A DNA stretch of 64,000 nt from an uncultured bacterium (GTDB taxonomy: Bacteria; Bacillota_I; Bacilli_A; RFN20; CAG-826): positions 30,395-94,394 of the forward strand of contig CASFCL010000002.1 in assembly GCA_949293255.1 (NCBI GenBank), read 5' to 3'. Position numbers and translations under genes: made by a program. The notes under the pieces were generated by a model. The model was not told the origin of the DNA and did no database searches. It saw only the letters and a program-made list of their open reading frames with translations. Positions within the stretch are counted from its first letter, which is position 1. Each line of letters starts with the position of its first letter. Of the stretch, positions 3,775 through 63,691 are shown in pieces.

Positions 3775-5067
3775 ATGATTGATAGATATACAACAAAAGA
3801 AATGAGCAAAATATTCTCTTTAAAGAATAAATTTTCAAAATATTTATTAGTTGAAAAAGAAGTTTGCCACTATCTCTATAAAAATAATGTAATTTCTGAA
3901 GATGTGTATCTAAAAATTTTAAAAGATGCTAAATTTGACCTAAAAGGAATTCAAGAATTAGAAAAAGAAACAAAGCATGATGTTATCGCTTTTACAAGAA
4001 ACGTTTCTTCGTATTTAGGCGAAGAGAAAAAATGGATTCATTATGGATTAACCTCTACTGATGTTGTTGATACTGCTTCTGCTGTTATATATAAAGAAGC
4101 TAACAAAGTATTAATGAAAAGAATGCTTGAATTTAAAGATGCTTTAAAAGAAAAAGCCTTAGCTTATAAATACACTCCTTGTATTGGAAGAACACATGGA
4201 ATCCATGCTGATATTACATCATTTGGTTTAAAGTGGTGTTTATATTTTGATGAATTTAATAGGGATTTTGCAAGGTTTTTGATTGCAAAAGCTGAAATTG
4301 AGACCGGAAAGATTTCTGGTGCTGTCGGAACTTTTTCTCTTTTACCATCAAATTGCCAAGACTTTGTTTGTACTTGTTTAGGCATTAACTCTTCAAATAT
4401 TTCTACTCAAGTTTTACAAAGAGATCGTCATTCATTTTACTCTTCATGCATAACAGTTTTTGGTTCTTTACTTGAAAAAATTGCCCTCGAAATTAGAAAC
4501 CTTCAACGCACAGAAGTTCATGAAGTTGAAGAATATTTTTCTAAAAATCAAAAAGGTAGTTCAGCAATGCCACATAAGCATAATCCAATCGGAAGCGAAA
4601 ATATTTGTGGATGTGCAAGAATGTTAAGAGGATATAATGTTGCAATTTTAGAAGATAATGCACTATTTCATGAAAGAGATATTTCACATTCATCCGTTGA
4701 ACGTATCGCTTTAGCTGATTCAATTATCTTATTTGATTACATGCTTCAAAGAATGACATCAATTATTAAAAATTTAAATGTATATCCTGAAAATATGCTT
4801 AAAAACATTTCATTAACAAACAATGTTATTTATTCTCAATACGTAATGACAAGGTTGATTGAAAAAGGTTTTTCTAGAGAAAACGCATACGATCTTATCC
4901 AACCAATGGCCGTAAAAGCATACGAAGAAAACATAGACTTTTTTGACTTATTAAGAAAAAATCCTACTGTTTTGTCGGCTATTTCTATAGATGAATTAGA
5001 TAATTTTAAAGATTCAACATTCAAAAAACTTGATATTGATACTATTTATAAAAGAGTCGGTCTTTAA
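3775..5067 (+). CDS. purB: Adenylosuccinate lyase
   Basis: MIDRY, GLTSTDVVDT, GRTHG, GSSAMPHKHNP, HERDISHSSVER. Confidence 0.97.
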   Translation: MIDRYTTKEMSKIFSLKNKFSKYLLVEKEVCHYLYKNNVISEDVYLKILKDAKFDLKGIQELEKETKHDVIAFTRNVSSYLGEEKKWIHYGLTSTDVVDTASAVIYKEANKVLMKRMLEFKDALKEKALAYKYTPCIGRTHGIHADITSFGLKWCLYFDEFNRDFARFLIAKAEIETGKISGAVGTFSLLPSNCQDFVCTCLGINSSNISTQVLQRDRHSFYSSCITVFGSLLEKIALEIRNLQRTEVHEVEEYFSKNQKGSSAMPHKHNPIGSENICGCARMLRGYNVAILEDNALFHERDISHSSVERIALADSIILFDYMLQRMTSIIKNLNVYPENMLKNISLTNNVIYSQYVMTRLIEKGFSRENAYDLIQPMAVKAYEENIDFFDLLRKNPTVLSAISIDELDNFKDSTFKKLDIDTIYKRVGL

Positions 5068-6336
5068 TTAATTTGGAAGCGGATAATTCTTTAATAAATT
5101 AATAATTTCTTTTTTAATTTTTTCTAATAATTTTTCGTCATCTTTGTTGCTTAATACTTTATCAATATATTCAGCAACTTTTATAAATTCAGCTTCTTTA
5201 AACCCTCTAGTTGTCATGGCAGGAGTTCCTAATCTAATACCACTACAATAAGTTGGTTTTTCTTGATCGCCTGGAATTGAGTTTTTATTACAAGTAATAT
5301 TAACTTTTTCTAATAAAGTTTGTGCTTCTAATCCGGTTACGCCGTATTTTTCTTTAACATTAACTAATAAAAGATGGTTATCAGTTCCGCCACTAATTAC
5401 AGGACATCCTAATTCAATTAATTTATTTGCTAATGCTTTAGCGTTTTTACATACATTTTCTATATAAATTTTGTATTCTGGTTGTAAATCTTCATAAAAA
5501 GCTACTGCTTTCGCAGCAATTACATGCATTAAGGGTCCGCCTTGGCATCCTGGGAATACTTCTCTATTAATCTTTTTAATTAATTCTTCATCGTTAGTTA
5601 AAATGAGTCCACCTCGTGGTCCTCTAAGTGTTTTATGTGTAGTTGAAGTAACTACATGTGCATAAGAAACTGGATTTTGATGATAACCTGTGCAACAAAG
5701 TCCAGCAATATGAGCCATATCAACAAGTAAATATGCTCCGATTTCATCGGCAATTTTTCTAAATTCTTCAAAATCAATATTTCTAGGATAAGCACTTGCG
5801 CCTGCAATAATAAGATTTGGTTTTACTTCATGACAAATTTTTCTAACTTCATCATAATTAATAGTTCCGTTACTAACATCTACTCCATAGGTATAAGCTT
5901 CATAATCTTTTCCAGAAAAAGAAAGTTTATAACCGTGGGTTAAATGTCCTCCACTATCTAAAGACATTCCTAAAATTTTGTCACCTTTATTAATTAGTGC
6001 TCTTATTGCAGCCATATTAGCTTGAGATCCAGAATGGGGTTGTACATTTGCAAATTTTGCACCAAAAAGTTTTTTAGCTCTTTCGATTGCTAAAGTTTCA
6101 ACAACATCAACATATTCGCAACCGCCATAATAACGGTTTCCAGGGTAGCCTTCTGCATATTTGTTTGTTAAGACACTACCTTGAGCTTCCCTTACAGCCA
6201 TCGAAACAAAATTCTCGCTGGCAATAAGTTCGATGTTCTCGTTTTGCCTTCTTTCTTCTTTGGCTATTGCATCAAATAATTCTGAATCTGTTATTTTTAT
6301 ACTTTTTTTGTTTATCATAAGTCTAGATATAATCAT
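5068..6336 (-). CDS. glyA: Serine hydroxymethyltransferase (start may be ATG at 6318)
   Basis: [45 protein letters not shown]. Confidence 0.97.
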
Positions 6337-6430
6337 ATAACATTCTTAAGATTCTTTAAATTAAAAATTCTCTATTTTGTGTAATTGTTTTTGACTTTTA
6401 ATTTTCCTCAAAAACCTATAAATTTTTTGC

Positions 6431-6457
6431 AAAAACCTTGCAAAAACCAAATATTTT
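6431..6457 (+). repeat. Dispersed motif B (AAAAACCTTGCA-AAAACC-AAATATTTT), intergenic copy
   Basis: Matches copies at 13032, 34981, 39647, 44234 and in several CDS. TTGCAAAAACC is tandemly duplicated here (6427-6448). Confidence 0.7.
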
Positions 6458-6488
6458 TACAAATTTTTATAGATTTGAATAAAAATAA

Positions 6489-6508
6489 TAAATAGTATAT
6501 ACTATTTA
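6489..6508. promoter_or_regulatory. Perfect 20-bp palindrome over a TATACT -10 box, putative operator
   Basis: TAAATAGTATATACTATTTA, 21 nt before the ATG at 6530. Confidence 0.55.
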
Positions 6509-6529
6509 AGCAAATTTTGAGGTAACGAA

Positions 6530-7579: not shown

Positions 7580-7592
7580 TTCAATTTAAATA

Positions 7593-13031: not shown

Positions 13032-13058
13032 AAAAACCTTGCATTTTTTAACTATTTT
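13032..13058 (+). repeat. Dispersed motif B, intergenic copy
   Basis: AAAAACCTTGCA-N6-AACTATTTT, same spacing as 39647 and 6431. Confidence 0.65.
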
Positions 13059-13249
13059 GGCCTTTTTTTGCTAATTTTTAACTAATTTTACTCACTAAAA
13101 AACTACTAATTTTTAATTACAAAAATTTAACTTTTATTTTTATAAAAAAGTCTTTATATTTTTAAGGCCTAAAGGAAAACAACATACTAAGTCGTTAAAA
13201 ACGGAAAGTAGTTTCATATTTTAGACGCCCACTTAAAAAGGAGAACGTT

Positions 13250-15631
13250 ATGATATCAGTAAAGAAAAGAGATGGAAAAATTGTTGATTTTGACTTACAC
13301 AAAATTGAATCCGCTATCGAAAGAGCATTTGTTGCTTGCGGAAAAGTTTACAATTCACAAATTATCGAACTTATCGCTTTAAAAGCAAGTTCAAACTTCA
13401 ACACAAAAATTGAAAATAATGTAGTATCAGTCGAAGATATTCAAGATGCTGTTGAAATTTCTTTAATTCAAGCAGGCTATGTTGATGTTGCTAAAGCCTA
13501 TATTAAATATAGACAACAACACGAAGCTTTAAGACAAATTAAACAAACAGAATTAGATTATAAGAAAACAGTCGACAACTACTTAAATATTAATGACTGG
13601 AGAGTTAAAGAAAATTCCACTGTTACTTATTCAGTTGGTGGTTTAATTCTTTCTAACAGCGGCGCTGTCACTGCTAACTATTGGTTAAGCGAAGTCTACG
13701 ATAAAGAAATCGCTGATGCACATAGAAATGCTGATATCCATCTTCATGATTTAAGTATGCTTACTGGCTACTGTGCTGGTTGGTCATTAAAGCAATTAAT
13801 TCAAGAAGGTCTTGGTGGAGTTACAGGAAAGATCACTTCTTCCCCTGCTTCTCACCTTTCAACCCTTTGCAATCAAATGGTTAACTTCTTAGGAATTATG
13901 CAAAATGAATGGGCTGGTGCTCAAGCTTTCTCCTCATTTGATACATATCTTGCTCCATTTGTTAAAGTTGATCACTTAACATACAAAGAAGTTAAACAAT
14001 GTATTCAATCATTTATCTTCGGTGTTAACACTCCATCAAGACGGGGAACTCAATCACCATTTACAAACATTACATTAGATTGGACAGTTCCAAATGATTT
14101 AGCTGAATTAAATTGTATTGTTGGTGGAAAAGAACAACCATTCAAATATAAAGATTGTAAAAAAGAAATGGATATGATCAATAAAGCATTCATCGAAGTT
14201 ATGATCGAAGGTGATGCTAATGGAAGAGGCTTCCAATATCCAATCCCAACATACTCAATTACAAAAGATTTTGATTGGTCAGATACTGAAAATAATAGAT
14301 TATTATTCGAAATGACCGCAAAATACGGTACTCCATACTTCTCAAACTATATCAATTCAGATATGCAACCAAGCGATGTTAGAAGTATGTGCTGTAGATT
14401 AAGATTAGATCTTAGAGAATTAAGAAAGAAATCAGGCGGCTTCTTTGGAAGCGGTGAATCTACCGGTAGTATTGGTGTTGTTACAATCAATATGCCAAGA
14501 ATTGCTTACCTTTCAACAGATGAAAATGATTTCTATGCAAGATTAGAAAAATTAATGAACATTGCAGCAAGATCATTAAAAATTAAACGTGATTTTGTTA
14601 CAAAACTTCTCGAAGCAGGATTATATCCATATACAAAGAGATATTTAGGAACATTCAACAACCACTTCTCCACTATCGGATTAGTTGGTATGAATGAAGC
14701 TTGTTTAAATGCTAGATGGATTAAAGAAGATTTAACTCATGAAAAAGCTGAAGAATTCACAGTAAATGTTCTTAACTTCATGAGAACAAAATTATCTGAC
14801 TATCAAGTTCAATATGGAGACTTATATAACCTTGAAGCTACTCCAGCAGAATCAACATCTTATCGTTTAGCAAAGCATGATAAAGAAAGATATCCAGACA
14901 TTATTACTGCTAGTATGAATGGAGAAACTCCATATTATACAAACTCAAGCCACTTACCAGTTGGTTATACAGAAGATTTATTTGAAGCTCTTGATAAAGA
15001 AGATCAATTCCAAACATTATACACATCAGGTACAGTCTTCCACTGTTTCTTAGGTCAAAAATTACCAGATTGGAAATCATGTATGAATCTTGTAAGAAAG
15101 ATTGCTGAAAATTACAAACTTCCTTACTACACCATGTCTCCAACATATTCTGTCTGTAAAAACCATGGTTACCTTGAAGGCGAACAAAAAGTTTGTCCAC
15201 ACTGTGGTTCAGCAACTGAAGTCTACTCAAGAATTACTGGTTACTATAGACCTATTCAAAACCGGAACGATGGTAAAACTCAAGAATTCAAAGATAGAAA
15301 AGAATACGTTCTTGGATCATCACACTTAAAAGAAAGAAAAGTTGAAAAAGAAGTTGAAACTCTAAACATCATTCAATCTCAAAAAGCTGATGTTTCAGAA
15401 TTAATGCTCTTCACAACAAAGACATGTCCAAACTGTAAATTAGCAAAATCAATCCTCGATAAAGCAGGAATCCCATATAAAGTCATCGATGCTGAAGAAA
15501 ATAAAGACGTCGTTCAAGCATATGGAATTAAAAAAGCTCCAACACTCTTAGTTCCTGATAACGATGGATACGATTATTACGAAAACGCATCATTAATTAA
15601 AGGCTTTGTCGAAAGTCACAAAGCCATGTAA
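13250..15631 (+). CDS. nrdD: Anaerobic (class III) ribonucleoside-triphosphate reductase with N-terminal ATP cone and C-terminal glutaredoxin/NrdH-like domain
   Basis: ATP cone KKRDGKIVDFD, RSMCCRL, EATPAE, Zn site CKNH...CPHC, glycyl-radical RITGYYRP, C-terminal TCPNC redoxin; SD AAGGAG. Confidence 0.95.
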   Translation: MISVKKRDGKIVDFDLHKIESAIERAFVACGKVYNSQIIELIALKASSNFNTKIENNVVSVEDIQDAVEISLIQAGYVDVAKAYIKYRQQHEALRQIKQTELDYKKTVDNYLNINDWRVKENSTVTYSVGGLILSNSGAVTANYWLSEVYDKEIADAHRNADIHLHDLSMLTGYCAGWSLKQLIQEGLGGVTGKITSSPASHLSTLCNQMVNFLGIMQNEWAGAQAFSSFDTYLAPFVKVDHLTYKEVKQCIQSFIFGVNTPSRRGTQSPFTNITLDWTVPNDLAELNCIVGGKEQPFKYKDCKKEMDMINKAFIEVMIEGDANGRGFQYPIPTYSITKDFDWSDTENNRLLFEMTAKYGTPYFSNYINSDMQPSDVRSMCCRLRLDLRELRKKSGGFFGSGESTGSIGVVTINMPRIAYLSTDENDFYARLEKLMNIAARSLKIKRDFVTKLLEAGLYPYTKRYLGTFNNHFSTIGLVGMNEACLNARWIKEDLTHEKAEEFTVNVLNFMRTKLSDYQVQYGDLYNLEATPAESTSYRLAKHDKERYPDIITASMNGETPYYTNSSHLPVGYTEDLFEALDKEDQFQTLYTSGTVFHCFLGQKLPDWKSCMNLVRKIAENYKLPYYTMSPTYSVCKNHGYLEGEQKVCPHCGSATEVYSRITGYYRPIQNRNDGKTQEFKDRKEYVLGSSHLKERKVEKEVETLNIIQSQKADVSELMLFTTKTCPNCKLAKSILDKAGIPYKVIDAEENKDVVQAYGIKKAPTLLVPDNDGYDYYENASLIKGFVESHKAM

Positions 15632-16561: not shown

Positions 16562-16587
16562 AAAATGGTCGAAAGACCATTTTTTTT
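16562..16587. terminator. Bidirectional intrinsic terminator between trxB and the DUF1848 gene
   Basis: AAAATGGTC-GAAA-GACCATTTT plus T-run. Confidence 0.85.
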
Positions 16588-17476
16588 AATCGTGTCTTTC
16601 TACTATTTTTGAGGTAGATTTTACTCTTCCTATAAGTAAAGAAGAATTATCAAAGTGATTCATTAAGTTTTTAGAAATTGAATGTTCATCAAAATTTGCA
16701 TAACAATATTTACAATAATTTGAACAAGTATTGTATGCACCAATATCCACCACTTGCACACAATTACAAAACTTATTTTTTCTAGCGTTCCGTTTTGGAA
16801 ATTCTTTTCCTGTTAAATGTTTAATAAATTCCTTTCCTAAACATTCGCCTTTTATAAAACCATATTCAAAAAAATCATTTTCTTCTGCACAAGTTTGAAC
16901 TAATTTTCCGTTTTCATCGGCAATTTTTGAAAATTCTATGCCTATTTTCTTATAGTCTTCTTTCGTAAAAGGAATGATATTCAAATCTTTCATATTTTTC
17001 TTTACGTTTTTATAAATATCAATAAAAGAAACGATGATTGTTTTTATGTTTTTATCAAGTTGAGAGCACAATTTTTTAAAAGCTCTTATATGATAATCAA
17101 CATTATATTTTTTAATAAGAAAAACAGGATCATATCGAACAAAAACTCTATTTGGACCTAAAAGTCTAGCTAATCTATTTGTACATTCGATTATATCTAT
17201 TTTGTTTTTTACATTAGGCTCGATATCTTTTTGATAACCTGTAATTGTTACAAAAAATAAAGTTGGTTTTACCATAAATCGATACATATAATTTTCTATA
17301 TTTCGAGGATCTTTTGTTGAAAAAACATATATATCTACATCTTCAAAATAAATTCTTGAAACCATTTCTTTATTAAAAGGGTTTTCAACATCAACAAAAC
17401 CTTCATTTAATCTATTGATTAGCCAAGGTGTGAAATATTTAACAATATCTGTTCTTCCACTTATATGTAAAATCAT
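16586..17476 (-). CDS. DUF1848 family protein (radical-SAM-like CxxxCxxC)
   Basis: MILHISGRTDIVKYFTPWL...VENPFN, RYDPV, DIGAYNTCSNYCKYCYAN. Confidence 0.88.
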   Translation of the reverse strand: MILHISGRTDIVKYFTPWLINRLNEGFVDVENPFNKEMVSRIYFEDVDIYVFSTKDPRNIENYMYRFMVKPTLFFVTITGYQKDIEPNVKNKIDIIECTNRLARLLGPNRVFVRYDPVFLIKKYNVDYHIRAFKKLCSQLDKNIKTIIVSFIDIYKNVKKNMKDLNIIPFTKEDYKKIGIEFSKIADENGKLVQTCAEENDFFEYGFIKGECLGKEFIKHLTGKEFPKRNARKNKFCNCVQVVDIGAYNTCSNYCKYCYANFDEHSISKNLMNHFDNSSLLIGRVKSTSKIVERHD

Positions 17477-20400
17477 TTCTTTAAATCTATTTTTCCTTGA
17501 TTTGTGGTGAAATCTTTATAAAAAGCAAGGATGTAATCAATCATTTCTTTAATTTTTATTGAACTTTGTAAAGAAATTGAGCTCGCACCAAAAGCATAAC
17601 CGACTGATTTAATCATATCTTCTAAAGTTATTTCTCTTTGAAGTTTTAAAATTTCAATCATTGCATTTTTAACTTCAACAATTGGAAGTTGTTCTAAAGA
17701 TCTTTGATAAATAGATGACGTTCTATAATAATCCATAGTGTCTAAATTTATTGATAAAGGATAATAAAAATACCCATTAATTTCTGCAACTTTTTTACTT
17801 TTTACATATCTAAGTTGAATATTAAATAGTCTTTTAACTTTTGGACCAACTCTTTCAAGTCCGAAGAAGTCTTTAAATCTTTGAAGTAAGAGATTTTCTG
17901 AAATTGGACCTTCATAATTAATTACGTTTTCTAAACTTGTAACTAATTCAGGGTACATTCTTTCAACTTGATAGTTCTCATAATTGAACGAATTGAAAAC
18001 TTTATATTTTAAATAATCTTTCTTTCTATGAGATTCATTGGTTTCTGCTTTTTCAAAATTGACATCATCTACTTCAATTTCATCAACGTTATTATCTAAA
18101 TTTTCTAAATTCTCTAAAGCTTTTAAGATATCTTTTATGACTTGATCCTTGTTTTTAAAGTAATCAATTGTAAAAATACGAATTATTTTCCATTTTAATC
18201 TAGTTAAAATTAAAGAATGAACATAGTTTCTATCTCTACATGTAGGGGTGCTTAAATATGTATCACTATCACAAATAATACCTAAAATATACTTTCCTTC
18301 ACTGTTTTTGATACATAAATCAATTTTAAATTTAGAATCTCCGACATTAATATCAGATTCAATTCCTAATTTTGCTAAATCCTCTTTAATGAAATTTTGT
18401 ACACCAATTTCGCTAATAATTTGATTCTTATTTTCTATTTCTAAAGACTCTAATCCTTGTTCAGCATATAAAAGGAATGATTTTAAAACTGCTGCTCCTT
18501 TATTTTTAACTCTTCTTGCATCAATATCTGAAGATTTAATTGAAGAATAAATTATCATTTCTTTTCTAGCTCTAGTTATTGCAACATTTAATCTTCTTTC
18601 ACCTTTATCTAAAGAAAGTGGGCCAAAATTATGTAAAAATTTGCCTTCAGGATTATAACCAAAACCAACAGAGAAAATAATTACATCTCTTTCATCACCT
18701 TGAACGTTTTCTAAATTCTTAATAAATAAAGGATCTTCTTCATTATTAATTAATTCTAAATATTTTGGATTATCCATTACTTCTTTTTGTAATTCTTTAT
18801 AAACAAATTCTTGTTGTTTGATGTTAAAACAAACTATACCGATGCTTTGTTTACTTAAAATTGGGTCATCTAATCTATGAATAATTTCTTTAACAATTGC
18901 TTTAGCTTCAACTTTATTAATTCCTGATTCATAAACACCATCTTTTAAATAATTAAAGGAAACTTTTGATAATTTATTATCAGGAGATGGGAAAGTATAA
19001 AGATTATGATCATAGAAATAATTATTTGAGAAAGCAATTAATGACTCATGAGCAGATCTATAGTGCCATAAAAGTCTATTTCTCTTCATTTTTAAAGTTA
19101 TACAATCATCTAAAAGCGACTCTAAATCTTCATAAACAATGCTTTCATCATATTCATCCAACGATGTAATGTTTGCTTTAAAGAAATTTGTTGGTGGCAT
19201 TTGTTGAGGATCACCTGCAACTATTAAGCTGTTTCCTCTAGAAATTGCACCAATTGCTTCACATGTAGGAATTTGACTTGCTTCATCAAAAATAACGATA
19301 TCGAACTTTTTAGTATCAAGACTTAAATATTGAGCAGCTGATAAAGGAGACATGAAGAAGCAAGGACAGAATGTTCTAATTAAATCTTCATAATCTTCTA
19401 AAATTCCTCTAATAGTTTGTCCTCTTCCACCATTTTTAATTAATTTTCTTAAACTATAAATTTTACTTGATTCAGCATATCTAACATTAGAGACTGGGAA
19501 GTCTTGAGTTAAAATGTTTGCGGTTTTTTCGATAACAAGAGTTGAAAAATTACTAAGTAGCTCATCATATTTTTTAATTGCTTCATTAAAGAGGATGCCA
19601 TTGAATTCATTATAATAAGGATCTTTAAAATAATTGTTTAATATGACTTTATAAACAGAAACTAAAAATCTATTTTTTAGTTCTTCTACACTAAATATAC
19701 CAACTCTATATTTTTGAATTATGTATTTATAAAGACCTAAATCTTCTAGTTCCTTAAGCACACGATTAAAAATAATAAGGTTATAGATTTCGTTCTTTTC
19801 GTCTAATGCCTTATTGAGTGAAGCAATGCATGACCCCATATATGAGGAATCTATTTCGTCAAAATCAGTTAAGAAAACGAAATCATATTTGTTTGAAAAT
19901 TCCGCCTCATAATCTCGAACTTTAGATATTTCTTGAATCATTATTTCAATATTATTTTTGACATTTTCCCCGTCTTTTAAATCAAAAATCTCGCAGAACC
20001 TTAATTTATTTTCTAAAACCTCGTTTTCTGGCATGTCTTTTAAAAGAAGGTCTACCTTATTTAATAAATCTAATCCATTGTCAAATCTAACCAAAAGATT
20101 TTTAAAATTAACTTCAGTTAAATCTTCTGAAATTCTTTCAAATTGTTCTATATATTGAGTTTTTAAGTTTATAGATTGTTCTTCTTCTTTTATTAAATTT
20201 AATAAGAAAAGATACTTTTCAATCTCTTTATTTGTTAACTTATGTTCTTTAATTTCTAAATATGCTTTAAGTTCTCTTTTGATATTGTGCTTAGCAAAAA
20301 ATTTAGTAAAAACATTTCCAGATTTAAGAGTTTCGATAACTTCTTTAATATAATCTTCGTCAATATTTAAAACAGATTTTTTAAATGTTTTAAATAAATA

Positions 20401-23262: not shown

Positions 23263-23373
23263 AAAAAAATTATAGCACAAGTGTATTTTCTATTATTACA
23301 CATTTTATATTAAATTTTTATAAAAATTTTAATTTTATCCACGATTAGCGCGTTTTTTTGGGACATAAAAAAT

Positions 23374-24570: not shown

Positions 24571-24576
24571 CTTTTT

Positions 24577-44216: not shown

Positions 44217-44234
44217 AGGTTCTGCAGGGTTTTT
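44217..44234 (-). repeat. Dispersed motif B copy right after the ispE stop
   Basis: Minus strand AAAAACCCTGCAGAACCT. Confidence 0.6.
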
Positions 44235-45100: not shown

Positions 45101-45111
45101 AAGTAATAATA

Positions 45112-47243: not shown

Positions 47244-47244
47244 T

Positions 47245-48570: not shown

Positions 48571-48586
48571 AATATATACTTATAAT

Positions 48587-49312
48587 TTATTCTTCTGATG
48601 ATTCAATAGCAACTTCAGTATTTGCAACTTCTTCTTTAACTTCTTCGTTTTCTTTTGGTGCTCTATCAAAGTTTTTACGATTTCTTGTTCTTCTTGGTTT
48701 GATAGGTTTTCCGTTTCCAACGTATTTGATTACGATTGATCTATCTTTTCCATCACCAATTGATTCGGTTTTAATATCGTTCCAATTTGCTAAAGCATTA
48801 TGGACTTTCTTTCTTTCATCTGGTGTCATTGGATCAAGTTTAGCATCAACGTGAGTTCTTTGAACTGTCTTAGCAACTCTTTTTGCGATACTAATAACTT
48901 TTCCGTATTTCTTTTCTTTATATTGAGAAATATCAATTAAAATTCTAAATTTTTTATGGAATTTTGAAGAAACAGCTAATTTAACTAATTCATTGAAAGC
49001 TTGTAATGTTTCTCCATTTTTTCCAATAATAACTGGATTATGATTAGTTTCAACTAAAATCTTAATTAATCCATCGTTAGCAAACGTTTTTAAACTTACT
49101 TCAATACCAAGTTCGTGGCAAATATCAGTGATATAAGTTTCAGCATATTCAATGATGTCGCTAACTTCAAAAACTGAAATTGTTGCTCTTTTTGTGAATA
49201 AGCCTTTTTTCTCTTCATTTACTTCATAAAGTAAATCTTCAACAGCTAATTCAAGTTCTGAACTAGCTAATTTAAGGCAATCATCGACTGTTTTAGCAGT
49301 GTACTTTTTCAT
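48587..49312 (-). CDS. jag: Jag/EloR (KhpB) KH-R3H RNA-binding protein
   Basis: IIGKNGETLQA, PMTPDERKKVHNAL, ESIGDG..R. Confidence 0.92.
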   Translation of the reverse strand: MKKYTAKTVDDCLKLASSELELAVEDLLYEVNEEKKGLFTKRATISVFEVSDIIEYAETYITDICHELGIEVSLKTFANDGLIKILVETNHNPVIIGKNGETLQAFNELVKLAVSSKFHKKFRILIDISQYKEKKYGKVISIAKRVAKTVQRTHVDAKLDPMTPDERKKVHNALANWNDIKTESIGDGKDRSIVIKYVGNGKPIKPRRTRNRKNFDRAPKENEEVKEEVANTEVAIESSEE

Positions 49313-49315
49313 AAA

Positions 49316-51154
49316 TTATCTCTCCTTTTTCTTTTTAACTAATATTAAATGCATTATTAAAGTTTGGATGATACTAAAGATAGCTCCACATAACCAATAA
49401 ACTCCCATTGCGCTTGGAAGTGTAAAGCCCATGAAGATGATCATACCAGTCATAAATATTTGTACCCATTTCATTGTTTTTTGTTGTTGGTTTTGAGATG
49501 GGCTAACGCCTAATTTTTGTATGTTTTTTGCTCTCTTTTTGCTTAAAATTTGAGGTAACATCATCGATACAATTTGAGCAGCAGACATTAATAAGATTAA
49601 TACTAAAGCTGTCCACCAACCCGCACTTGCTGGCCATCCTGCAAAGTTAGTTAATGTATTCCAAATTGTATCTGATAATCTTAATCCTAAAACTGCATCT
49701 CTAGATAAAGAAGCACTTCCGGTTAAGGCGTTCCAAACAGAAATAAATACTGGGAATTGAATAATAATTACTAAAAATGACGAGAATGGATGAACTTTAT
49801 GCTTTTTATATAAAGCCATTTGAGCTTGAGCATATCTTTGCTTTTCATAATCATTTGTAGTGTAATTTGGATATTTTTGTTGTAATTTTGCAAGTTCAGG
49901 TTGTAAATATTGCATTTTTTGAGTGCTTACTGTTGATGGGAATGTAACCAACATAAATAATCCTCTAACAATAAGTGTTACAAGTAAAACTGCTAAAATT
50001 TGTCCACCACCATTCATACCAAAGGCATGAGAGAATGTTTCAACCATTGTTGAAATTGGATAAACAAGTAAACCTTCTAAGAAACCATGTTGAGCAAAGG
50101 CATTTCCCCAACCTTCCCAGAAGTTAACAGCTTTTCCTTCAATTCTAACTGTATCTGAAAGTGGATCGTTTGAAGTATGTCCATAGAATCCATCTTCAAT
50201 TGTGATACAACTTCTAATGTTAGAAACTGTGTTATTTAAATTTGTTTGATAAGCAGATAAATAGTTGCTACTCATTGCTTGGTCATCTCCTAGAGTTTCT
50301 TGAATTTCTTTGTTCCAAGTTTCAATTTGTTCCCAAGCATCATATTCTTCACTTAAATTAGAATTATCAAATTTAAGATAACCTAACGTTGTTAAAAGTG
50401 AGTGATTCCTTCCAAAACCTGTCTCTCTAGTTCTTGAATCTTCAGGTTCACTTTCTTCTCCGCCTAATAAATAATTTAATTTTTCATCAGTTGGATTTTC
50501 TACATAATCTAAATAAGAAGAATATGAATAACCATATAAATCAGTAAAAGTAAGGTTTTCGCGTGTAATTTGACTATTTTCAAGCCATCCATAACCACAA
50601 GTAGAAGCATTGTTTAAAATTTTATCGATAACTTTTAAATCTAATTCTTCATAAAATGCTAAAGCAGGTGTTAAAACACCAGCACTTGCAGTTGAATTAA
50701 TAATAGAAGTTGAAAAAGAACTGAGACCAAAAGTTACATAACTATTGTAATTAGTTGATGATCCAGATTCGGTTTCAGTTGTTGTTTGATAGTAGATATT
50801 TTGTGGTTTTAAATAGACAAGATTATTGTTAAAAGTTCCGATAACATCGGATATATTTGCATCAGTAATAGCAACTTTTACTTTCTCCGTTCCGCTTTCG
50901 TTTAAGGAATAAATTTGAAGATCATTAATTGTTAAATTTTCACCATCAGTTACTCCATCAATGGTTTGAATTTGACTAATGATATAATCTTCAGCTTGTT
51001 CTTGAGTTTCAAAAAACCTTGTATTTATAGGGTCATAAGCATATCTAAAGTGTGCGGTGTCTTCGTTAGAACAGAATGAATTACAAGAAACTAAGATTCC
51101 AACTGTTGTAACTATTCCAACGATTCCGAGTGTTGTTTTAAGTGTTTTATTCAT
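49316..51154 (-). CDS. yidC: Membrane protein insertase with long lipoprotein-type N-terminal domain
   Basis: LVSC lipobox (Cys24), KMQYLQPELAKLQQKY, QFPVFISVW, LPSAMGVYW; rnpA-yidC-jag order. Confidence 0.93.
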   Translation of the reverse strand: MNKTLKTTLGIVGIVTTVGILVSCNSFCSNEDTAHFRYAYDPINTRFFETQEQAEDYIISQIQTIDGVTDGENLTINDLQIYSLNESGTEKVKVAITDANISDVIGTFNNNLVYLKPQNIYYQTTTETESGSSTNYNSYVTFGLSSFSTSIINSTASAGVLTPALAFYEELDLKVIDKILNNASTCGYGWLENSQITRENLTFTDLYGYSYSSYLDYVENPTDEKLNYLLGGEESEPEDSRTRETGFGRNHSLLTTLGYLKFDNSNLSEEYDAWEQIETWNKEIQETLGDDQAMSSNYLSAYQTNLNNTVSNIRSCITIEDGFYGHTSNDPLSDTVRIEGKAVNFWEGWGNAFAQHGFLEGLLVYPISTMVETFSHAFGMNGGGQILAVLLVTLIVRGLFMLVTFPSTVSTQKMQYLQPELAKLQQKYPNYTTNDYEKQRYAQAQMALYKKHKVHPFSSFLVIIIQFPVFISVWNALTGSASLSRDAVLGLRLSDTIWNTLTNFAGWPASAGWWTALVLILLMSAAQIVSMMLPQILSKKRAKNIQKLGVSPSQNQQQKTMKWVQIFMTGMIIFMGFTLPSAMGVYWLCGAIFSIIQTLIMHLILVKKKKER

Positions 51155-51485
51155 TGGTTTCCCCTTTGATAACTTTAAGTAATTCTGAAAGATTTTCTAA
51201 ATTACTTAAAAACTCTTCAGTGTCATAAGCTTTTGAAATTGTAACGACAAAATCATATTTTTCGCTAAATGTAAGAGTAGATGTAATAATTTCACGAACT
51301 TGTCTTTTGATTTTGTTTCTTCTTACTGCGTTTCCGTGTTTTTTAGTAATAAGGATTCCTACGCGTGAATAATCGAATTTTCTATCGTCAAAATAAACAG
51401 TAAATAATTTATTTCTTTTAAATTTTCTTTGATCGAGTATTTGTTTAAATTCGCGATATGTTTTTATTACATTCTTTTTCTTCAT
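51147..51485 (-). CDS. rnpA: RNase P protein component
   Basis: RVGILITKKHGNAVRRNKIKRQVRE. Confidence 0.96.
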   Translation of the reverse strand: MKKKNVIKTYREFKQILDQRKFKRNKLFTVYFDDRKFDYSRVGILITKKHGNAVRRNKIKRQVREIITSTLTFSEKYDFVVTISKAYDTEEFLSNLENLSELLKVIKGETNE

Positions 51486-51631: not shown

Positions 51632-52090
51632 TTTTAATTTCCTCCATTTCGTTACGTAAAAATACGTGCAATAAATTATATATGTATTTATACATATAAG
51701 TCAAATTATAAAAAGTCATATTCTTAAAGTCAAAATGAAATCATATTCACACCTTTAATTTATAAAAATTGTTTAATTTTAATTTATTCACATTATGTGG
51801 AAAACTCAATTATTTTATGTTTAATATAATCTAAAACAAGCGATTTTATCGATATTTTTACAATGTGGAAAACTTTTAAAAATGTGCAATTTTTATCACA
51901 AATACACAATTTTCAACAGTGTAAATCTTTATTCACAAAGTTTTCCACATAAAAAGTTGTGGAAATTGCTTTTTTATCGATAAAATCATTGATTTTTATT
52001 AAGAAAAATGTGGACAAAATAATTTTGTGGTTTTTATCACTTTTTTTAATGTGTAAAAGTAGTAAAATTTTACACGAAAGGTTTTAAATT
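51632..52090. other. oriC part 1: DnaA-box cluster between rpmH and dnaA
   Basis: TTATTCACA 51784 and 51929, TGTGGAAAA 51796 and 51864, TTTTCCACA 51941; near matches at 51910, 51958, 52009. Confidence 0.9.
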
Positions 52091-54995: not shown

Positions 54996-56071
54996 TTGTT
55001 GAATCTCTAACTTTAGAAAATTTTAGAAATTTTGACTCTTTAGAACTTAATTTTAATAAGGGTATTAATTTTATTTACGGACCTAACGGAAGTGGTAAAA
55101 CCAACCTTGTTGAAGCTATTTATTACTTGTCTTTAACTAGGAGCTTTAGGACAAATAATGAGGATTCACTTATTAATCTAAAAACTGATAATTTTAAAAT
55201 AAAAGCCAGGATTTGCAGGGATTTTTGTTCAAATTACGTATATATTTTCAAAAATAAAGAAGGAAAATATATTGAAATTAATAACAAAAACATTAAAAAA
55301 ATATCAGAAATTAATAAGAGTACAAACTGCTTAATTTTCAGTCCTAAAGATGTAAATTTATTGAAAGATTTACCTAAAGAAAGAAGAAATTTTATGAATC
55401 TATTGATCTCTAAAATTGATGATGAATATTTAAAAGATTTTATTCAATTCAATAAAATTTTGAAAAATAGAAACGCAATTTTAAAAGAAAATTCAATTGA
55501 TTTAAAACTTCTAAATGTAGTTACAAAACAACTCATCGAAGTTAGTAAAAAACTTTATTCGTTTAGAAAAAGATATTTAAAAAAACTTGATGAAGCTTTA
55601 AAAAACGCATATTCAAAAATTGCTAAAGATAAAAATAAACTTATCGAAATAGTTTATAAGCCAATTATAGATAATTTAGAAAGTTTTGAAGAAATAGCTA
55701 CTCGAATGTATAAAGATTCTTTAGAAGAAGATTTAAAAAAGAAAACTACTACAATTGGAGTTCATAAAGAAGACTTTATGATCAAAGTAAATGGTAAAAA
55801 TGTTGGAATGTATGGTTCTCAAGGAGAAAATCGTATTGCTACACTAGCATTAAAGTTGGCTCCTTATTACTTAAAAGAAAACAATAAACCAATAATTATT
55901 CTAGATGACGTTTTATCTGAATTAGATGATAAACATCAATCAAATTTACTATCAATGCTAAAAGATTTTGAACAAGTATTCATTACTTCAACCTTCAAAA
56001 TCGAAAATATACAAGAAAACATACGGTTTTTTAAGATAGATAACGCTAAATTTGTTAAGGAAGGAGCATAA
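54992..56071 (+). CDS. recF: DNA replication/repair protein RecF
   Basis: LENFRNF, GPNGSGKTN, SFRT, YGSQGE.R, LDDVLSELD. Confidence 0.96.
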   Translation: MIVESLTLENFRNFDSLELNFNKGINFIYGPNGSGKTNLVEAIYYLSLTRSFRTNNEDSLINLKTDNFKIKARICRDFCSNYVYIFKNKEGKYIEINNKNIKKISEINKSTNCLIFSPKDVNLLKDLPKERRNFMNLLISKIDDEYLKDFIQFNKILKNRNAILKENSIDLKLLNVVTKQLIEVSKKLYSFRKRYLKKLDEALKNAYSKIAKDKNKLIEIVYKPIIDNLESFEEIATRMYKDSLEEDLKKKTTTIGVHKEDFMIKVNGKNVGMYGSQGENRIATLALKLAPYYLKENNKPIIILDDVLSELDDKHQSNLLSMLKDFEQVFITSTFKIENIQENIRFFKIDNAKFVKEGA

Positions 56072-58197: not shown

Positions 58198-60783
58198 ATG
58201 GAAGAAAACGAAAAGCAAATCGATGAAATTGAAACTTCTGAAGAAGAATTAAATGAAGAAAACGCAGCATTAGAAGCTGGAATCACTGCCTCTTTAGAAA
58301 ATACTGAAATCACTACTCAAGTTAGACAATCATTCCTTGATTATGCAATGTCTGTTATTGTTTCACGTGCAATTCCAGAAGTAAAAGATGGTTTAAAACC
58401 AGTTCATAGAAGAGTTATTTATGGTATGTATAATGGTGGTTATACATATGATAAAAAATATGTCAAATGTGCAAAAGTTGTTGGTGATGTCATGGGTAAA
58501 TTTCACCCACATGGTGATGCTGCAATTTATGATACATTAGTTAGACTTGCTCAAGATTTCTCAATGAGATATCCACTCGTTGACGGTCATGGAAACTTTG
58601 GTAACATGGATGGCGACCAAGCTGCTGCTTCTCGTTACACTGAATGTAGAATGAATAAATTATCAAACGAGATGGTAAAAGATCTTGATTTTGATACAGT
58701 TGATTATATTCCTAACTATGATGGTAGTGAAAAAGAACCAGTTGTTTTACCAACTAGATTCCCAAATTTACTTGCAAACGGTAGCGATGGTATCGCTGTT
58801 GGTATGGCAACAAAAATGCCACCACACAATTTTGGAGAATTAATTGATGGAATTATCGCTTATTCACAAAACCCAGATATTACAACTGAAGATTTAATGA
58901 AATATATTAAAGGTCCTGATTTCCCAACAGGCGGAATTATTTATGGTCTTGGCGGAATTAGAGATGCTTATAATACAGGAAGAGGATCTTTTAAACTTAG
59001 AGCAAAAGCCGAAGTTAAAACAGAACCGAATGGTAAAGGAAAAATTATCGTTACTGAAATTCCTTACCAAGTAAGAAAAAGCGATTTAGTTTCAAAAATT
59101 GGTGAACTTGCCAGAGAAAAAGTTATTGATGGAATTACTTCTATTAAAGATTTCTCAAAAGAAAATGTTCATATTGAAATTGAAACTAGAAGAGATGTTG
59201 AACCATCAGTTATCTTAAATAAATTGTACAAAATGACACAACTTGAAATTTCTTATGGTGTCATTAATCTTTGTATTGTTGATGGTGTTCCAAAAGTCTT
59301 AAGTTTAAAAGAAATTTTAAGATTATATCTTGAATTCCAAATTGAATTAATTACAAGAAGAACCAATTATTTAAAAGAAAAAGACGAGAGAAGATGTCAT
59401 ATAATTGATGGTCTATTACTTGTTGTTGACAACATTGATGAGGTCGTAGAAATAGCAAAAACCTCACAGAACCAAACTATTTTTGCAGAAAACCTTAAAG
59501 AAAGATTCGGTTTGGATGACGAACAAGCTAAGTCAGTTGTTCAAATGACACTTGGTAGATTAACAGGTGTTGAGACTACAAAACTCATCGATGAAAGAAA
59601 CGTATTATTAAAAAATATTGAAGGTTATAACTTCATTCTTTCATCAAAAGAAAACACTCTTGCAGTTGTAATTGATGAACTTAATGTAATGAAAAAACAA
59701 TTCAATGATCCAAGAAGAACCGAAATTTCAACAAACATTATGTCTTTAAATGACGAAGATTTAATTGCCGAAGACGATATTGTTATTTGCTTAACTAAAA
59801 ACGGATACATTAAGAGAATGTCTACCTCCGAATTTAAAGTTCAAAATAGAGGCGGAGTTGGTGTTAAAGGTATGAGTACCTATGAAGATGATTCGGTAGT
59901 TAAAGTTGAATTTGCTTCTACTCATGCTGATATTTTATTCTTCTCATCAAAAGGTAGAGTTTATAGAAAAAGAGGTTATGAAATTAATGAATCTTCAAGA
60001 CAAAGTAAAGGTTTACCACTCGTTAACCTCTTAAATCTTGATAAAGATGAAAGTATTGTCTCAATAATTTGTATTAGAGATTATGAAGATGAAAAAGAAT
60101 ATGAAAACAAATTCTTATTCTTTGCAACCAAACAAGGTATCGTTAAACGTACATCTTTAAGTGAATTTGAAAGAATTAATGTAAATGGAAAAATTGCTCT
60201 TTCATTTAAAGAAGACGATAACTTATTAGATGTCAAAGTTACTGATGGGACAAGCAAGATTTTAATTGCTTCAAGAGATGGACAACTTTGTATGTTTGAT
60301 GAAAACGAAGTCAGAAGCATGGGAAGAACCGCTGCTGGTGTTCGTGGAATCAATTTAAAAGGAAGCGAAGTTGTTGGCGTAGCTACATCACTTGAAGGAG
60401 ACAAAGTTTTAGTTATTTCTGAAAAAGGATATGGAAAATTATCTCCAATTGATACTTATAGACTTACTCACAGAGGATCAAGCGGCGTCATCACCCTTAA
60501 AATCACTGAAAAAACAGGCGAACTTGTTTGTATGAAAGTTGTTAATGGCGAAGAAGATTATTTAGCTATTAAAACAAATGGTGTTGTAATTAGAAGTACA
60601 TTAACTCAAGTTAGAGAAGTTAATAGAAATGCTGTTGGTGTAAAAATGGTAAATCTTCAAAACGACGAAACAGTTTCTTCTGTTGCAATTCTTCCTCATG
60701 AAGATGAAGAAATTGACGAAGAAAACGCTGAGCAACCAGAAGAAAACGCTGAACCAGTCGAAGAAAATCAAGTTAATGAATAA
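58198..60783 (+). CDS. gyrA: DNA gyrase subunit A
   Basis: DGLKPVHRR, FHPHGD, AASRYTE, GyrA-box QNRGGVG, acidic C-tail. Confidence 0.97.
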   Translation: MEENEKQIDEIETSEEELNEENAALEAGITASLENTEITTQVRQSFLDYAMSVIVSRAIPEVKDGLKPVHRRVIYGMYNGGYTYDKKYVKCAKVVGDVMGKFHPHGDAAIYDTLVRLAQDFSMRYPLVDGHGNFGNMDGDQAAASRYTECRMNKLSNEMVKDLDFDTVDYIPNYDGSEKEPVVLPTRFPNLLANGSDGIAVGMATKMPPHNFGELIDGIIAYSQNPDITTEDLMKYIKGPDFPTGGIIYGLGGIRDAYNTGRGSFKLRAKAEVKTEPNGKGKIIVTEIPYQVRKSDLVSKIGELAREKVIDGITSIKDFSKENVHIEIETRRDVEPSVILNKLYKMTQLEISYGVINLCIVDGVPKVLSLKEILRLYLEFQIELITRRTNYLKEKDERRCHIIDGLLLVVDNIDEVVEIAKTSQNQTIFAENLKERFGLDDEQAKSVVQMTLGRLTGVETTKLIDERNVLLKNIEGYNFILSSKENTLAVVIDELNVMKKQFNDPRRTEISTNIMSLNDEDLIAEDDIVICLTKNGYIKRMSTSEFKVQNRGGVGVKGMSTYEDDSVVKVEFASTHADILFFSSKGRVYRKRGYEINESSRQSKGLPLVNLLNLDKDESIVSIICIRDYEDEKEYENKFLFFATKQGIVKRTSLSEFERINVNGKIALSFKEDDNLLDVKVTDGTSKILIASRDGQLCMFDENEVRSMGRTAAGVRGINLKGSEVVGVATSLEGDKVLVISEKGYGKLSPIDTYRLTHRGSSGVITLKITEKTGELVCMKVVNGEEDYLAIKTNGVVIRSTLTQVREVNRNAVGVKMVNLQNDETVSSVAILPHEDEEIDEENAEQPEENAEPVEENQVNE

Positions 60784-60787
60784 ATAA

Positions 60788-61819: not shown

Positions 61820-63093
61820 TAGATATCAATTATATTTTAAAAAATAAAGATCACGTAAAAGAGTTATTAGCTAGAAAAGAATTTGAAGCTGATATTGATG
61901 GACTTTGCTCAAAGGTTGAAGAAAAAAGAAAAATTCAAAAGCAAGTTGAAGACAATAAAGCTGAACAAAATAGACTTTCAAAATCAGTTCCACAAGTTAA
62001 AAAAGAAGGCGGCGATGTTCAAGCAATTTTTAAAAAAAGCAAGGAATTAGCAGGGATAAATAAAGAAAACGAAGAAAAACTTGCTGTTTTAGAAGAAGAA
62101 ATTAACAAGATTTTATTTGCTCTTCCAAACCTTCCAGATGAAGATTTACTTGCTGGAGGAAAAGAAAATAACAAACCAATTTATGAATTCAAAACAAAAC
62201 CAGAATTTGATTTTGAAATTAAATCGCATGTCGATTTAGCTGAATCTTTAGGTTTAATTGATTATGAAAGAGGAGCAAAAGTTAGTGGCCGTGGAAGTTG
62301 GTTCTATACTAATTTAGGTGCTCGTCTTGAATGGGCTTTATTGAATTTCTTTATTAGCGAACACCTTAATGATGGATTCGCGTTTATGCTTCCTCCACAT
62401 TTATTAAATTACGAAAGTGGATTCACAGCTGGACAATTCCCAAAATTTGAAGAAGATGTTTTTGCTTTAAAAGATGTCTCACCATTCAAGTTTATTCTTC
62501 CAACTGCTGAAACAGCTTTAATTAACTATCATAGAAACGAAATTTTAAGTGAAGAAGATCTTCCTAAAAAATATTTTGCATATACTCCGTGTTATAGAAA
62601 AGAAGCTGGTGCATATAGAAGCGAAGAAAGAGGAATGATCAGAGGTTATCAATTCAATAAAGTTGAAATGGTTGAATATACAAAAGATGATGATTCTGAT
62701 AGAGCTTTTGAGGAATTAGTTAATAAAGCTAAAACTTTAGTTGAAAAATTAGGCTTACACTTTAGAATTTCTAAACTTGCTGCAGCAGATTGCTCACATT
62801 CAATGGCCAGAACTTATGATATTGAAGTTTATTTGCCATCTTTAAATATTTACAAAGAAGTTTCTTCAGTTTCAAATGCTAGAGATTATCAAGCAAGAAG
62901 AGGAATGATCAGATATAAAGATAAAGATGGAAAAATGCATTACTGTCACACTTTAAATGGTAGTGGACTTGCAACAAGTAGAATCTTCCCAGCAATTTTA
63001 GAGCAATATCAACAAAAAGATGGTTCCGTACTTGTTCCAGAAGTACTTCAACCATTTATGGGTGGAATTAAAGTCATCAAACCAGTTAAATAA
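61816..63093 (+). CDS. serS: Serine--tRNA ligase
   Basis: LPTAET, CYRKEAG...RGMIRGYQFNKVE, YKEVSSVSN, HTLNGSGLAT.R. Confidence 0.98.
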   Translation: MIDINYILKNKDHVKELLARKEFEADIDGLCSKVEEKRKIQKQVEDNKAEQNRLSKSVPQVKKEGGDVQAIFKKSKELAGINKENEEKLAVLEEEINKILFALPNLPDEDLLAGGKENNKPIYEFKTKPEFDFEIKSHVDLAESLGLIDYERGAKVSGRGSWFYTNLGARLEWALLNFFISEHLNDGFAFMLPPHLLNYESGFTAGQFPKFEEDVFALKDVSPFKFILPTAETALINYHRNEILSEEDLPKKYFAYTPCYRKEAGAYRSEERGMIRGYQFNKVEMVEYTKDDDSDRAFEELVNKAKTLVEKLGLHFRISKLAAADCSHSMARTYDIEVYLPSLNIYKEVSSVSNARDYQARRGMIRYKDKDGKMHYCHTLNGSGLATSRIFPAILEQYQQKDGSVLVPEVLQPFMGGIKVIKPVK

Positions 63094-63130
63094 AAACTAT
63101 TATTAATAAATTATTTTGATATAATTATTA

Positions 63131-63210
63131 AGCCATCGCGATTTATAACTTCGAACCAGGTCAGGATGGGAACATAGCAGCCTTAAGATACTTGTAATTG
63201 TGCGATGGTT
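63131..63210 (+). ncRNA. ffs: Small (Alu-less) signal recognition particle RNA
   Basis: CAGGTCAGG-ATG-GGAA-CAT-AGCAGC helix 8, closing stem AGCCATCGC/GCGATGGTT, TGATATAAT -10 box 5 nt upstream. Confidence 0.9.
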
Positions 63211-63229
63211 TTTATTTTATGATTAATAT

Positions 63230-63691
63230 ATGAAAAACATTGACGAACACTTCATGAAGATTGCCTTAAAAGAAGCTAACAAAGCTCTTTTAAAAGAGGA
63301 GATTCCAATTGGATGTGTTATTGTTGATGAAAATAATAAAATTATTGCTCGAGGACATAACATAAAAGAACAAAAAGAAGATGTTTCAGCACATGCTGAA
63401 ATTTTGGCAATTCGAAAAGCAGGAAAGAAAAGAAATAATTGGCGACTTAATGGCTGCACAATCTATATTACCCTTGAACCTTGCTTAATGTGTGCCTCTG
63501 CAATCATACAAGCAAGATTATCAAGAGTCGTATTTGGAGCAAGAGAAGATAATACTGGAGCATTTGGATCAAAATACAATATTTTAGAGTTAGAAAACCA
63601 AATTTTAGACGTCAAAAAAGACGTCTTAGGAGACGAAAGCAAGCGACTTTTGCAGGGTTTTTTTCAAAATAGAAGGAAAAAATCTAAATAA
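63230..63691 (+). CDS. tadA: tRNA adenosine(34) deaminase
   Basis: EIPIGCVIV, AHAEILAI, NWRL, TLEPCLMCASA. Confidence 0.95.
   Translation: MKNIDEHFMKIALKEANKALLKEEIPIGCVIVDENNKIIARGHNIKEQKEDVSAHAEILAIRKAGKKRNNWRLNGCTIYITLEPCLMCASAIIQARLSRVVFGAREDNTGAFGSKYNILELENQILDVKKDVLGDESKRLLQGFFQNRRKKSK

Follow-up and report, generated by a model that had tools for sequence, protein, structure and literature searches.

A dispersed ~28-bp DNA element specific to one clade of uncultured gut Bacilli: candidate uptake tag or nucleoid-protein site

We analyzed a 64,000-nucleotide stretch of DNA, referred to hereafter as the window, from an uncultured bacterium of the GTDB lineage Bacillota_I; Bacilli_A; RFN20; CAG-826 (contig CASFCL010000002.1, positions 30,395 to 94,394). 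An initial annotation of the window had pointed to a dispersed and over-represented 12-mer, AAAAACCNTGYA. The 12-mer is a real word but an incomplete one, since it covers one end only of a longer element of ~28 bp, the G-rich strand of which reads AAAAATAGTTGAGTTTTGCAnGGTTTTT. Our results make it very probable that the 12-mer is the best-conserved end of this non-palindromic, unstructured and clade-specific element, that the element is read as duplex DNA independently of transcription, and that its copies are made by point mutation and kept by selection or drive at the level of the nucleotides. The element is a duplex-DNA recognition site with a position-tolerant, transcription-independent role.

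Enrichment and anatomy of the element

The window holds ten exact copies of AAAAACCNTGYA on its two strands, the same ten, by position and strand, that the initial annotation had listed. Its estimate of well under one expected copy per 64 kb agrees with every null model applied (0.12-0.55). Dinucleotide shuffles of the window gave an expectation of 0.25, Markov models of order 0 to 6 gave 0.14-0.55, and simulations of order 3 and order 5 gave 0.12 and 0.32, respectively. A codon-aware null, which the initial annotation had named as a check, was run by permuting synonymous codons within each gene, leaving the protein and the codon usage unchanged. Five copies were observed in coding sequences (CDS) compared to 0.31 expected, and five or more were reached in none of 500 such shuffles. 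Intergenic DNA makes up 5.9% of the window, yet it holds half of the exact copies.

AAA precedes all ten occurrences of AACCNTGYA in the window, and NTGYA follows 10 of the 33 occurrences of AAAAACC. Perfect cores outnumber cores with one mismatch by 10 to 3, compared to 0.1 and 5.3 in shuffles (about 5-6.5 one-mismatch copies were expected). Eight of the ten exact copies continue with RAA, as had been reported, and AACTATTTT is present in three. An A/T-rich motif in an AT-rich genome, defined post hoc on the window in which it is counted, invites the explanation that the enrichment reflects chance, or follows from base composition, codon usage or conserved peptides. We consider the probability of this to be negligible: all nulls were exceeded 20-70 fold, the element was recovered in independent sequence, the CDS copies use rare codons, and the DNA of the tilS copy has been kept despite a frame shift.

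A repeat finder showed that the similarity among copies extends past the 12-mer, and a block of ~28 nt reading as the G-rich strand given above is common to the orthologous spacers of relatives. Parts of the element include GAGTTTTGCA and a GGTTTTT end, and a 10-bp-phased direct repeat, GAGTTTT-gca-AGGTTTT, runs through it. Metagenomes were scanned with the pattern GAGTTTTGCANGGTTTTT (17 specified bases), from which the upstream flank was left out. That flank, AAAATAGTT, was reproduced in at least ~26 AT-rich metagenome contigs among the matches listed, whereas the flanks of high-GC matches were random. Chance matches, about three-quarters of those listed, could be told apart from true ones because the unsearched flank either matches the consensus or does not.

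When the metagenome instances were aligned, conservation ended at the edges of the block, and the instances shared no hairpin, no -10 box and no second site at a constant spacing. The two strands fold no better than shuffles (minimum free energies of -0.2 and 0.0 kcal/mol, compared to -1.35 kcal/mol for shuffles), and the element has neither dyad symmetry nor terminal inverted repeats. A comparison of the window with Rfam 15 matched only the SRP RNA, and no family was matched at the elements even with E values up to 1. Scanning the window with a model of the full element gave 6-8 sites, including copies in rsmA and gyrA that were both missed by the 12-mer; the content of the window amounts to about six full-length elements and five core-only copies. 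Matches to the element average ~26 bits, far more than the 13-15 bits that the observed density would need. The element also has dialects, in that the species of the window favors a TGCAnGGTTTTT end and the relatives favor a TTGAGTTTTGCA center.

Distribution in the clade and constraint inside genes

A protein query identified uncultured gut 'Mollicutes'/Bacilli metagenome-assembled genomes (MAGs) as the nearest named genomes to the window (e.g., UMGS238, UMGS732 and ERR321628-bin.40), which we take to be members of the RF39-like group. A model of the element trained solely on metagenome instances was applied to 80 named genome loci (1.63 Mb), where it gave 28 matches compared to 1 in shuffles. 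Twenty-six of these lie in the six genomes closest to the window (L139-L143 and L195), at 2-7 per ~23 kb in each, and L145 and L146 gave one weak match apiece. The other 72 Bacillota and Spirochaetota loci, which include Erysipelothrix, Lactobacillus, Clostridia and Treponema, gave no match to the model. Similarly, the exact 12-mer occurs 8 times in 132 kb of the six genomes, compared to 0.4 in shuffles, and is almost absent from outgroups. In 16.9 kb of hold-out flanks of the window species, the full-element model identified three degenerate elements where ~0.01 were expected. The element is present in relatives and in metagenome contigs, so the enrichment is not limited to the window; a limitation of that kind was what the initial annotation had said would count against its proposal. 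Conservation in relatives was likewise borne out, both by orthologous sites and by a sister strain at 1.96% divergence, which kept five of five sites in the region compared; the sole change fell at the free N position, and as 1.5 changes were expected the power of this comparison is low.

Nine matches on phage contigs all had random flanks and look like chance, and a viral scan with a pattern of 14 specified bases gave scattered single chance matches among the at least 120 listed. The element is restricted to a single clade of gut Bacilli that are uncultured and AT-rich. Two further observations concern its sequence in other loci. In L138, the closest outgroup, which is without full elements, the gap between xylB and the ABC-transporter gene (~3680-3765) contains the inverted core-like words AAAACTCCTGCA ... 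TACAGGGATTTT. The two could pair as a hairpin, an arrangement typical of uptake sequences in terminators. In L334, L221, L273 and L276 (GC 0.34-0.42), a near-perfect element lies in a CDS that encodes ...GAIGKKVAEFCRVFDMNV... in the sole stop-free frame of the G-rich strand; the encoded region is presumably the NAD-binding region of a 2-hydroxyacid dehydrogenase.

Copies inside genes support the view, already taken in the initial annotation, that the signal acts at the nucleotide level and is not a by-product of codons or protein: besides the codon-preserving null, the evidence lies in rare codons and in the frame shift of tilS. The usage of codons in the window confirmed that the CDS copies draw on the rarest ones (0.4-6% usage), namely CTG (0.4% of Leu), CAG (2% of Gln), AGG (4% of Arg) and TTG (6% of Leu). 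The lineage-specific core copy in mnmE (48417-48428, + strand) uses AGG, CTG and CAC, is built from synonymous and non-synonymous substitutions, and is missing from relatives at ~70% MnmE identity; L008 has a lineage-specific copy at a different position in mnmE. Because MnmE is 441 amino acids long in all genomes compared, the CDS copies arose by substitution and not by insertion.

The copy in tilS (29944-29971, - strand) has the A-rich strand as sense strand. Six relatives carry full-length orthologous elements at this position and encode K-N-L-Q-N-(S/L)-T-I-L from them, with CTG used in four, and three outgroups without the element have an unrelated peptide. In the window species the same nucleotides are read in a shifted frame, as K-N-L-A-K-N-L-Q-K. 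Copies in CDS avoid the two frames of the element that contain stop codons. In the rsmA element (45317-45344, + strand), for example, which is read with the G-rich strand as sense and is without the GGTTTTT end, the consensus TAG has become GAG and the frame stays open. The rsmA copy is found at the same offset in L008, L140 and L143. A degenerate copy in mfd (33478-33505, + strand) is the orthologue of a perfect mfd copy in L195. The initial annotation had recorded the rsmA and mfd sites as near copies; they are present, and are in fact conserved orthologous elements.

Placement of copies in the window and beyond

Density and polarity were estimated from ~0.6 Mb of sampled loci, many of which are origin-proximal or were ascertained via one copy. 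Forty-three of the 73 instances (59%) are intergenic, where non-coding DNA accounts for 5-15%, and 30 lie in CDS. The intergenic instances fall in divergent (14), convergent (13) and tandem (12) gaps, with 4 at contig edges. Relative to transcription no bias in orientation was observed: the G-rich strand was sense in 16 and antisense in 14 of the CDS copies, and in tandem gaps the corresponding numbers were 7 and 5. Within the window the G-rich strand is the coding strand in seven of eight CDS copies, as had been stated. The density is ~0.17 per kb in the window, 0.2 per kb in the six relatives and 0.08 per kb in the other loci. Another 12 elements were found in 152 kb of ascertained metagenome loci.

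Four intergenic sites are orthologous between genomes: the convergent gap between xylB and an ABC-transporter gene, the spacer after ispE, the divergent spacer between the tetR-family gene and pth, and the spacer between ppdK and xylB. The last of these carries an element in relatives and is empty in the window. Orthologous positions in CDS are found in rsmA, tilS and mfd. These sites span deep divergence (Mfd 50-52%, MnmE ~70% identity), and the spacers that surround the intergenic ones cannot be aligned.

Full-length and partial elements occupy five intergenic sites in the window. An element in the divergent spacer between glyA and a hypothetical gene (6431-6458, + strand) reads AAAAACCTTGCAAAAACCAAATATTTTT and scores 30-34 bits, and one with a degenerate center in the divergent spacer between an HTH gene and nrdD (13032-13059, + strand) scores 22.9 bits. 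In the divergent spacer between pth and the tetR-family gene (34981-35028, + strand) the element is split by an insertion of ~20 nt, the core occupying 34981-34992 and the AACTCAACTATTTTT part ending at 35028; orthologues were found in L139-L143 and L195. A perfect full-length element (39647-39674, + strand; 42 bits) fills the 28 nt that separate the convergent ABC-transporter and xylB-like genes, with orthologues in L006, L010 and L195 and degenerate forms in L008, L141 and L142. A one-mismatch core in the 3' end of the xylB-like gene (39716-39727, - strand) is inverted relative to it. A core copy (44223-44234, - strand) lies 2 nt past the stop codon of ispE, upstream of a hairpin terminator; its orthologues are in L010, L143 and L008, and it is degenerate in L006.

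Other CDS copies in the window vary in quality. The core-only copy in purB (4269-4280, - strand), with the G-rich strand as sense, encodes F-A-R-F-L with AGG and TTG. The core copy in yidC (51012-51023, + strand) uses AGG, and that near the 3' end of tadA (63635-63662, - strand; 22 bits) uses CAG and TTG. The copy in recF (55198-55225, - strand) is weak and degenerate, with one core mismatch and 17.5 bits. In gyrA, from which copies were said to be missing, there is a degenerate full-length copy, AAAAACCTCACAGAACCAAACTATTTTT (59457-59484, + strand). The gene names given in the initial annotation were correct.

The intergenic preference would suit a transcription-related DNA site, such as the operator of a global regulator, or a roadblock or insulator that delimits transcription units. 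Divergent promoters have copies between them (~60-90 nt upstream in the case of pth and the tetR-family gene), and many copies are 0-11 nt from stop codons and beside terminators. This explanation is improbable in our judgment. One third of the intergenic copies (13 of the 39 classified) are in convergent gaps, which lack promoters, and 41% of copies lie within CDS, in one orientation or the other, a setting in which a roadblock would do damage. No -10 box or other partner keeps a constant distance to the element, tandem gaps contain it in both orientations, and its neighboring genes are functionally unrelated. Inside operons of L231 and L272, it occupies the space from a stop codon to the next start codon. 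A promoter or classical operator was rejected because of the copies in convergent gaps, the use of both orientations and the lack of a -10 partner; the promoter readings considered (a -35 of TTGCAA or TTGAGT, an extended -10, a sigma-54 -12 TTGCA and a sigma-H-like AGG) had no consistent -10 element. A bidirectional terminator (A-run ... T-run) was rejected for want of a stem, and an intrinsic terminator since the element is not a GC-rich hairpin with a T run. Similarities to the PurBox (AWWWCCGAAC), the sites of CsrA, the CtsR heptad repeat, the RAT antiterminator, dif/XerS, the marbox and ComK boxes were ruled out by direct comparison or because the sites are distributed over convergent gaps and genes without a relation to one another.

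Copies directly past stop codons would also be transcribed, as an RNA-level element would require, whether the site of an RNA-binding protein or small RNA or a signal in the 3' untranslated region. Such an element is hardly to be expected here, since the two orientations are equally frequent relative to transcription, the element has no structure and no Rfam match, and its position relative to the terminator flips between orthologous gaps. In orthologous convergent gaps, the element may stand on one side of the hairpin terminator or on the other.

The copies are dispersed, short, highly similar and mostly intergenic, and in L241 two stand in tandem with a period of ~30 bp, all of which could describe a small mobile or copied repeat family, similar to repetitive extragenic palindromes (REP) or miniature inverted-repeat transposable elements, or the remnants of one. 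We find this very unlikely. The element has no palindrome or hairpin and no terminal inverted repeats, its CDS copies arose by substitution in proteins of constant length, and orthologous positions are stable. No mobile-element, transposase or RAYT-type genes were present among the genes that flank the metagenome loci. Those flanks consist of unrelated housekeeping genes (enolase, amylase, argS, a glycosyltransferase, a SpoIIE-type phosphatase).

The origin of replication (oriC) lies between rpmH-rnpA and dnaA, at ~51.5-52.1 kb of the window. The minimum of GC skew is at ~50-52 kb, and inverted DnaA-box-like words, TTTCCACA ... TGTGGAAA, at 51942-51965 in the rpmH-dnaA spacer fit an origin there. 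The order of genes near the origin (44237-51485) is rnpA-yidC-jag-mnmE-tatD-(Toprim/DUF4093)-rsmA-ispE, and mnmG, rsmG, noc, parA and parB were not seen in the 64 kb around oriC. After ispE, L008 has a conserved open reading frame (ORF) of ~83 amino acids without a Pfam match (14366-14617), which is found at the same position in L009, L140, L143 and L146 and is absent from the window; in genomes with this ORF, the post-ispE element sits beyond it. In the metagenome contigs L223 (11128-11155) and L226 (421-448), with a GC content of 0.34-0.36, an element lies in the rnpA/rpmH-dnaA spacer, the presumed oriC region. Restriction of the element to the origin domain was rejected: among the matches listed, 20 of the 26 metagenome loci are unrelated to the origin-proximal region and share no gene with the window.

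The initial annotation had also reported that the G-rich strand is preferentially the leading strand. This bias is weak, with 13 of 18 independent origin-proximal sites having that polarity (p~0.1, not significant). The same count, together with over-representation, restriction to the clade, occurrence in genes and spacers, and phage contigs without the element, might be read as a self mark in recombination, repair or defense, for example a site that regulates a helicase-nuclease as Chi does, or one that is shielded from a defense system. Known Chi sites are 5-8 nt long and strongly polar. A length of 28 bp and a strong intergenic preference do not fit, the polarity seen here is not significant, and there is no bias relative to transcription; we regard a mark of this kind as quite unlikely.

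Several features of the window were noted apart from the element. A DUF1848 gene and an ORF of 1935 amino acids resembling a helicase form a block of low GC (16586-23280; 0.25-0.26 compared to ~0.30-0.33 for its neighbors) without a copy of the element; the block may be acquired, possibly as a defense-type island. A copy-free stretch of 17 kb that includes the giant helicase was rejected as a meaningful gap (P=0.27). Two sequences of 56 nt in inverted orientation (875-930 and 24528-24583) are 80% alike, lie upstream of a FAD-dependent gene at 1059 and of rpsF, and each have a Shine-Dalgarno-like GGAGG as their end. A mini-ORF of 2 codons comes after the first, and the pair, which has no Rfam match, may be a shared leader or promoter module. 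The 9-mer TTAGGCTTA occurs six times (12750, 31634, 35626, 47479, 52363 and 62749; 0.47 expected), five of them in frame as sense-strand Leu-Gly-Leu, which suggests an effect of codons or peptide rather than a signal in the DNA. A gene for the small SRP RNA (Rfam RF00169, 61 bits) lies between serS and tadA at 63125-63221.

Uptake tag or nucleoid-protein site

Uptake or nucleoid/segregation sites, the two roles proposed in the initial annotation, are still the best candidates, although for the first the density is 5-10 times too low and the copies are not in terminators, and for the second there is no clustering at the origin. We infer that a self tag of the uptake type fits more of the properties tested than other concrete roles, and by analogy we tentatively favor the element as a genome-wide tag akin to DNA uptake sequences. 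It would be bound preferentially by a surface or uptake protein belonging to a transformation machinery, both the reader and competence itself being presumed. Fragments from the same species that carry the element would be taken up and recombined more often, and through this bias near-perfect copies would spread and persist at any place that tolerates the sequence. That the element is the first sequence-specific DNA-uptake tag outside the Proteobacteria, a ~28-bp signal of uncultured, reduced-genome gut Bacilli with lineage-specific dialects, is a possibility that we put forward with still more reserve.

The known uptake signal sequences (USS) and DNA uptake sequences (DUS) have no orientation bias, have more perfect than mismatched copies, originate by mutation and, for USS, have AT-rich flanks (PMC1626085). 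They accumulate in permissive regions and avoid stop frames (10.1101/2025.10.24.684340). The element shares these features, with perfect copies in the majority in the window but not in its relatives, and its clade-specific dialects and its high information content likewise suit an uptake-type tag. Other benchmarks weigh against an uptake tag. The density of uptake sequences described so far is ~1 per kb, with values of up to 2.5 per kb (PMC1626085, PMC3630211), and that of the element, 0.08-0.2 per kb, is 5-10 times lower, resembling only that of competence-defective H. ducreyi, which has 199 copies (PMC1626085). Terminators contain about half of the known uptake sequences, often in inverted pairs (10.1101/2025.10.24.684340), whereas the copies described here adjoin hairpin terminators but stay outside them and almost never form inverted pairs, a single weak pair being observed. 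Sequence-specific uptake has been described solely in Neisseriaceae and Pasteurellaceae (PMC1626085, PMC3630211, 10.1101/2025.10.24.684340), and the host belongs to a Gram-positive-type lineage in which no uptake specificity has been described. The cores of the relatives are more degenerate than those of the window: the six genomes have 8 perfect and 19 one-mismatch cores, with 12 of the latter expected by chance, so the excess of perfect cores is about equal to the excess of one-mismatch cores. The hold-out flanks of the window species contain no exact 12-mer. Finally, orthologous sites that persist for long would be expected just as much if the element were a binding site tied to particular loci. 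The 64-kb window yielded no competence gene and no candidate reader protein.

A near-equal rival, which we consider possible, is that the element is the binding site of a clade-specific nucleoid-associated or chromosome-organizing protein that would bend or bridge DNA at phased A/T tracts. Its sites would be required every few kb and would be under selection in any tolerant sequence, genes among them. The persistence of orthologous copies over deep divergence amid unalignable spacers agrees with this, as do the asymmetric, 10-bp-phased repeat with its A/T tracts, a placement independent of transcription, the tandem copies of L241 with their ~30-bp period, the copies of L223 and L226 in the rpmH-dnaA spacer, and a higher density in origin-proximal loci (~0.2 per kb) than in other loci (0.08 per kb). 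The layout of an A-tract, ~9 bp and cTCAA-N4-TT (AAAAA-N9-aCTCAA-CTAT-TT) presumably recalls the sites of IHF. IHF-type sites consist of an A-tract and then WATCAANNNNTTR, and are bound by a DNABII protein with a sequence preference. Bacilli are not known to have IHF, and a nucleoid site would have no known analogue there. The information content of ~26 bits far exceeds the 13-15 bits needed, and the predominance of perfect cores in the window is unusual for such sites. The element is non-palindromic, unlike the sites of ParB (parS), Noc, SlmA and MatP, and is not restricted to the origin region. The window has no HU/IHF, ParB or Noc gene, which is of little weight.

Literature searches on the literal sequences and on RF39 and repeats found no description of the element. 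Few genomic words are both dispersed and rich in information, and those that are tend to reveal a core DNA transaction (e.g., uptake, segregation or repair). This one marks a whole clade of abundant, uncultured gut bacteria with essentially no molecular genetics. Were the element a true uptake tag, transformation biased by sequence would no longer be limited to two proteobacterial families, and active gene exchange within the lineage in the gut would be predicted. Were it a nucleoid-protein site, it would reveal an undescribed chromosome-organizing system in organisms whose origin region, as sampled, shows neither ParAB nor Noc genes. In both cases, the 28-mer can serve as bait for the protein that reads it and as a practical marker for binning contigs of the clade.

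The element can be classed among dispersed genomic recognition words, which are known as a general kind, but it fits no described family. REP and bacterial interspersed mosaic elements are likewise short, abundant, mainly intergenic and often beside terminators; the element differs in lacking dyad symmetry, in having ~40% of its copies in genes and in having no associated transposase in the loci seen. With nucleoid and segregation sites (IHF-type, parS, Noc, SlmA, MatP) it shares the character of a dispersed duplex site that is independent of transcription, is tolerated in genes and can be conserved in position, and it differs from parS and the Noc, SlmA and MatP sites in being asymmetric and not confined to the origin or terminus. 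It differs from DUS and USS, apart from the points given above, in a flank that is as informative as the core. It resembles them in being an over-represented word that is particular to a clade and has a sharp core, next to which one flank is AT-rich, as in USS. Its orientation is unbiased, in the window its perfect copies outnumber mismatched ones, and its copies originate by mutation in spacers and poorly conserved parts of genes. As with DUS and USS, stop frames are avoided, terminators are often close and orthologous positions persist.

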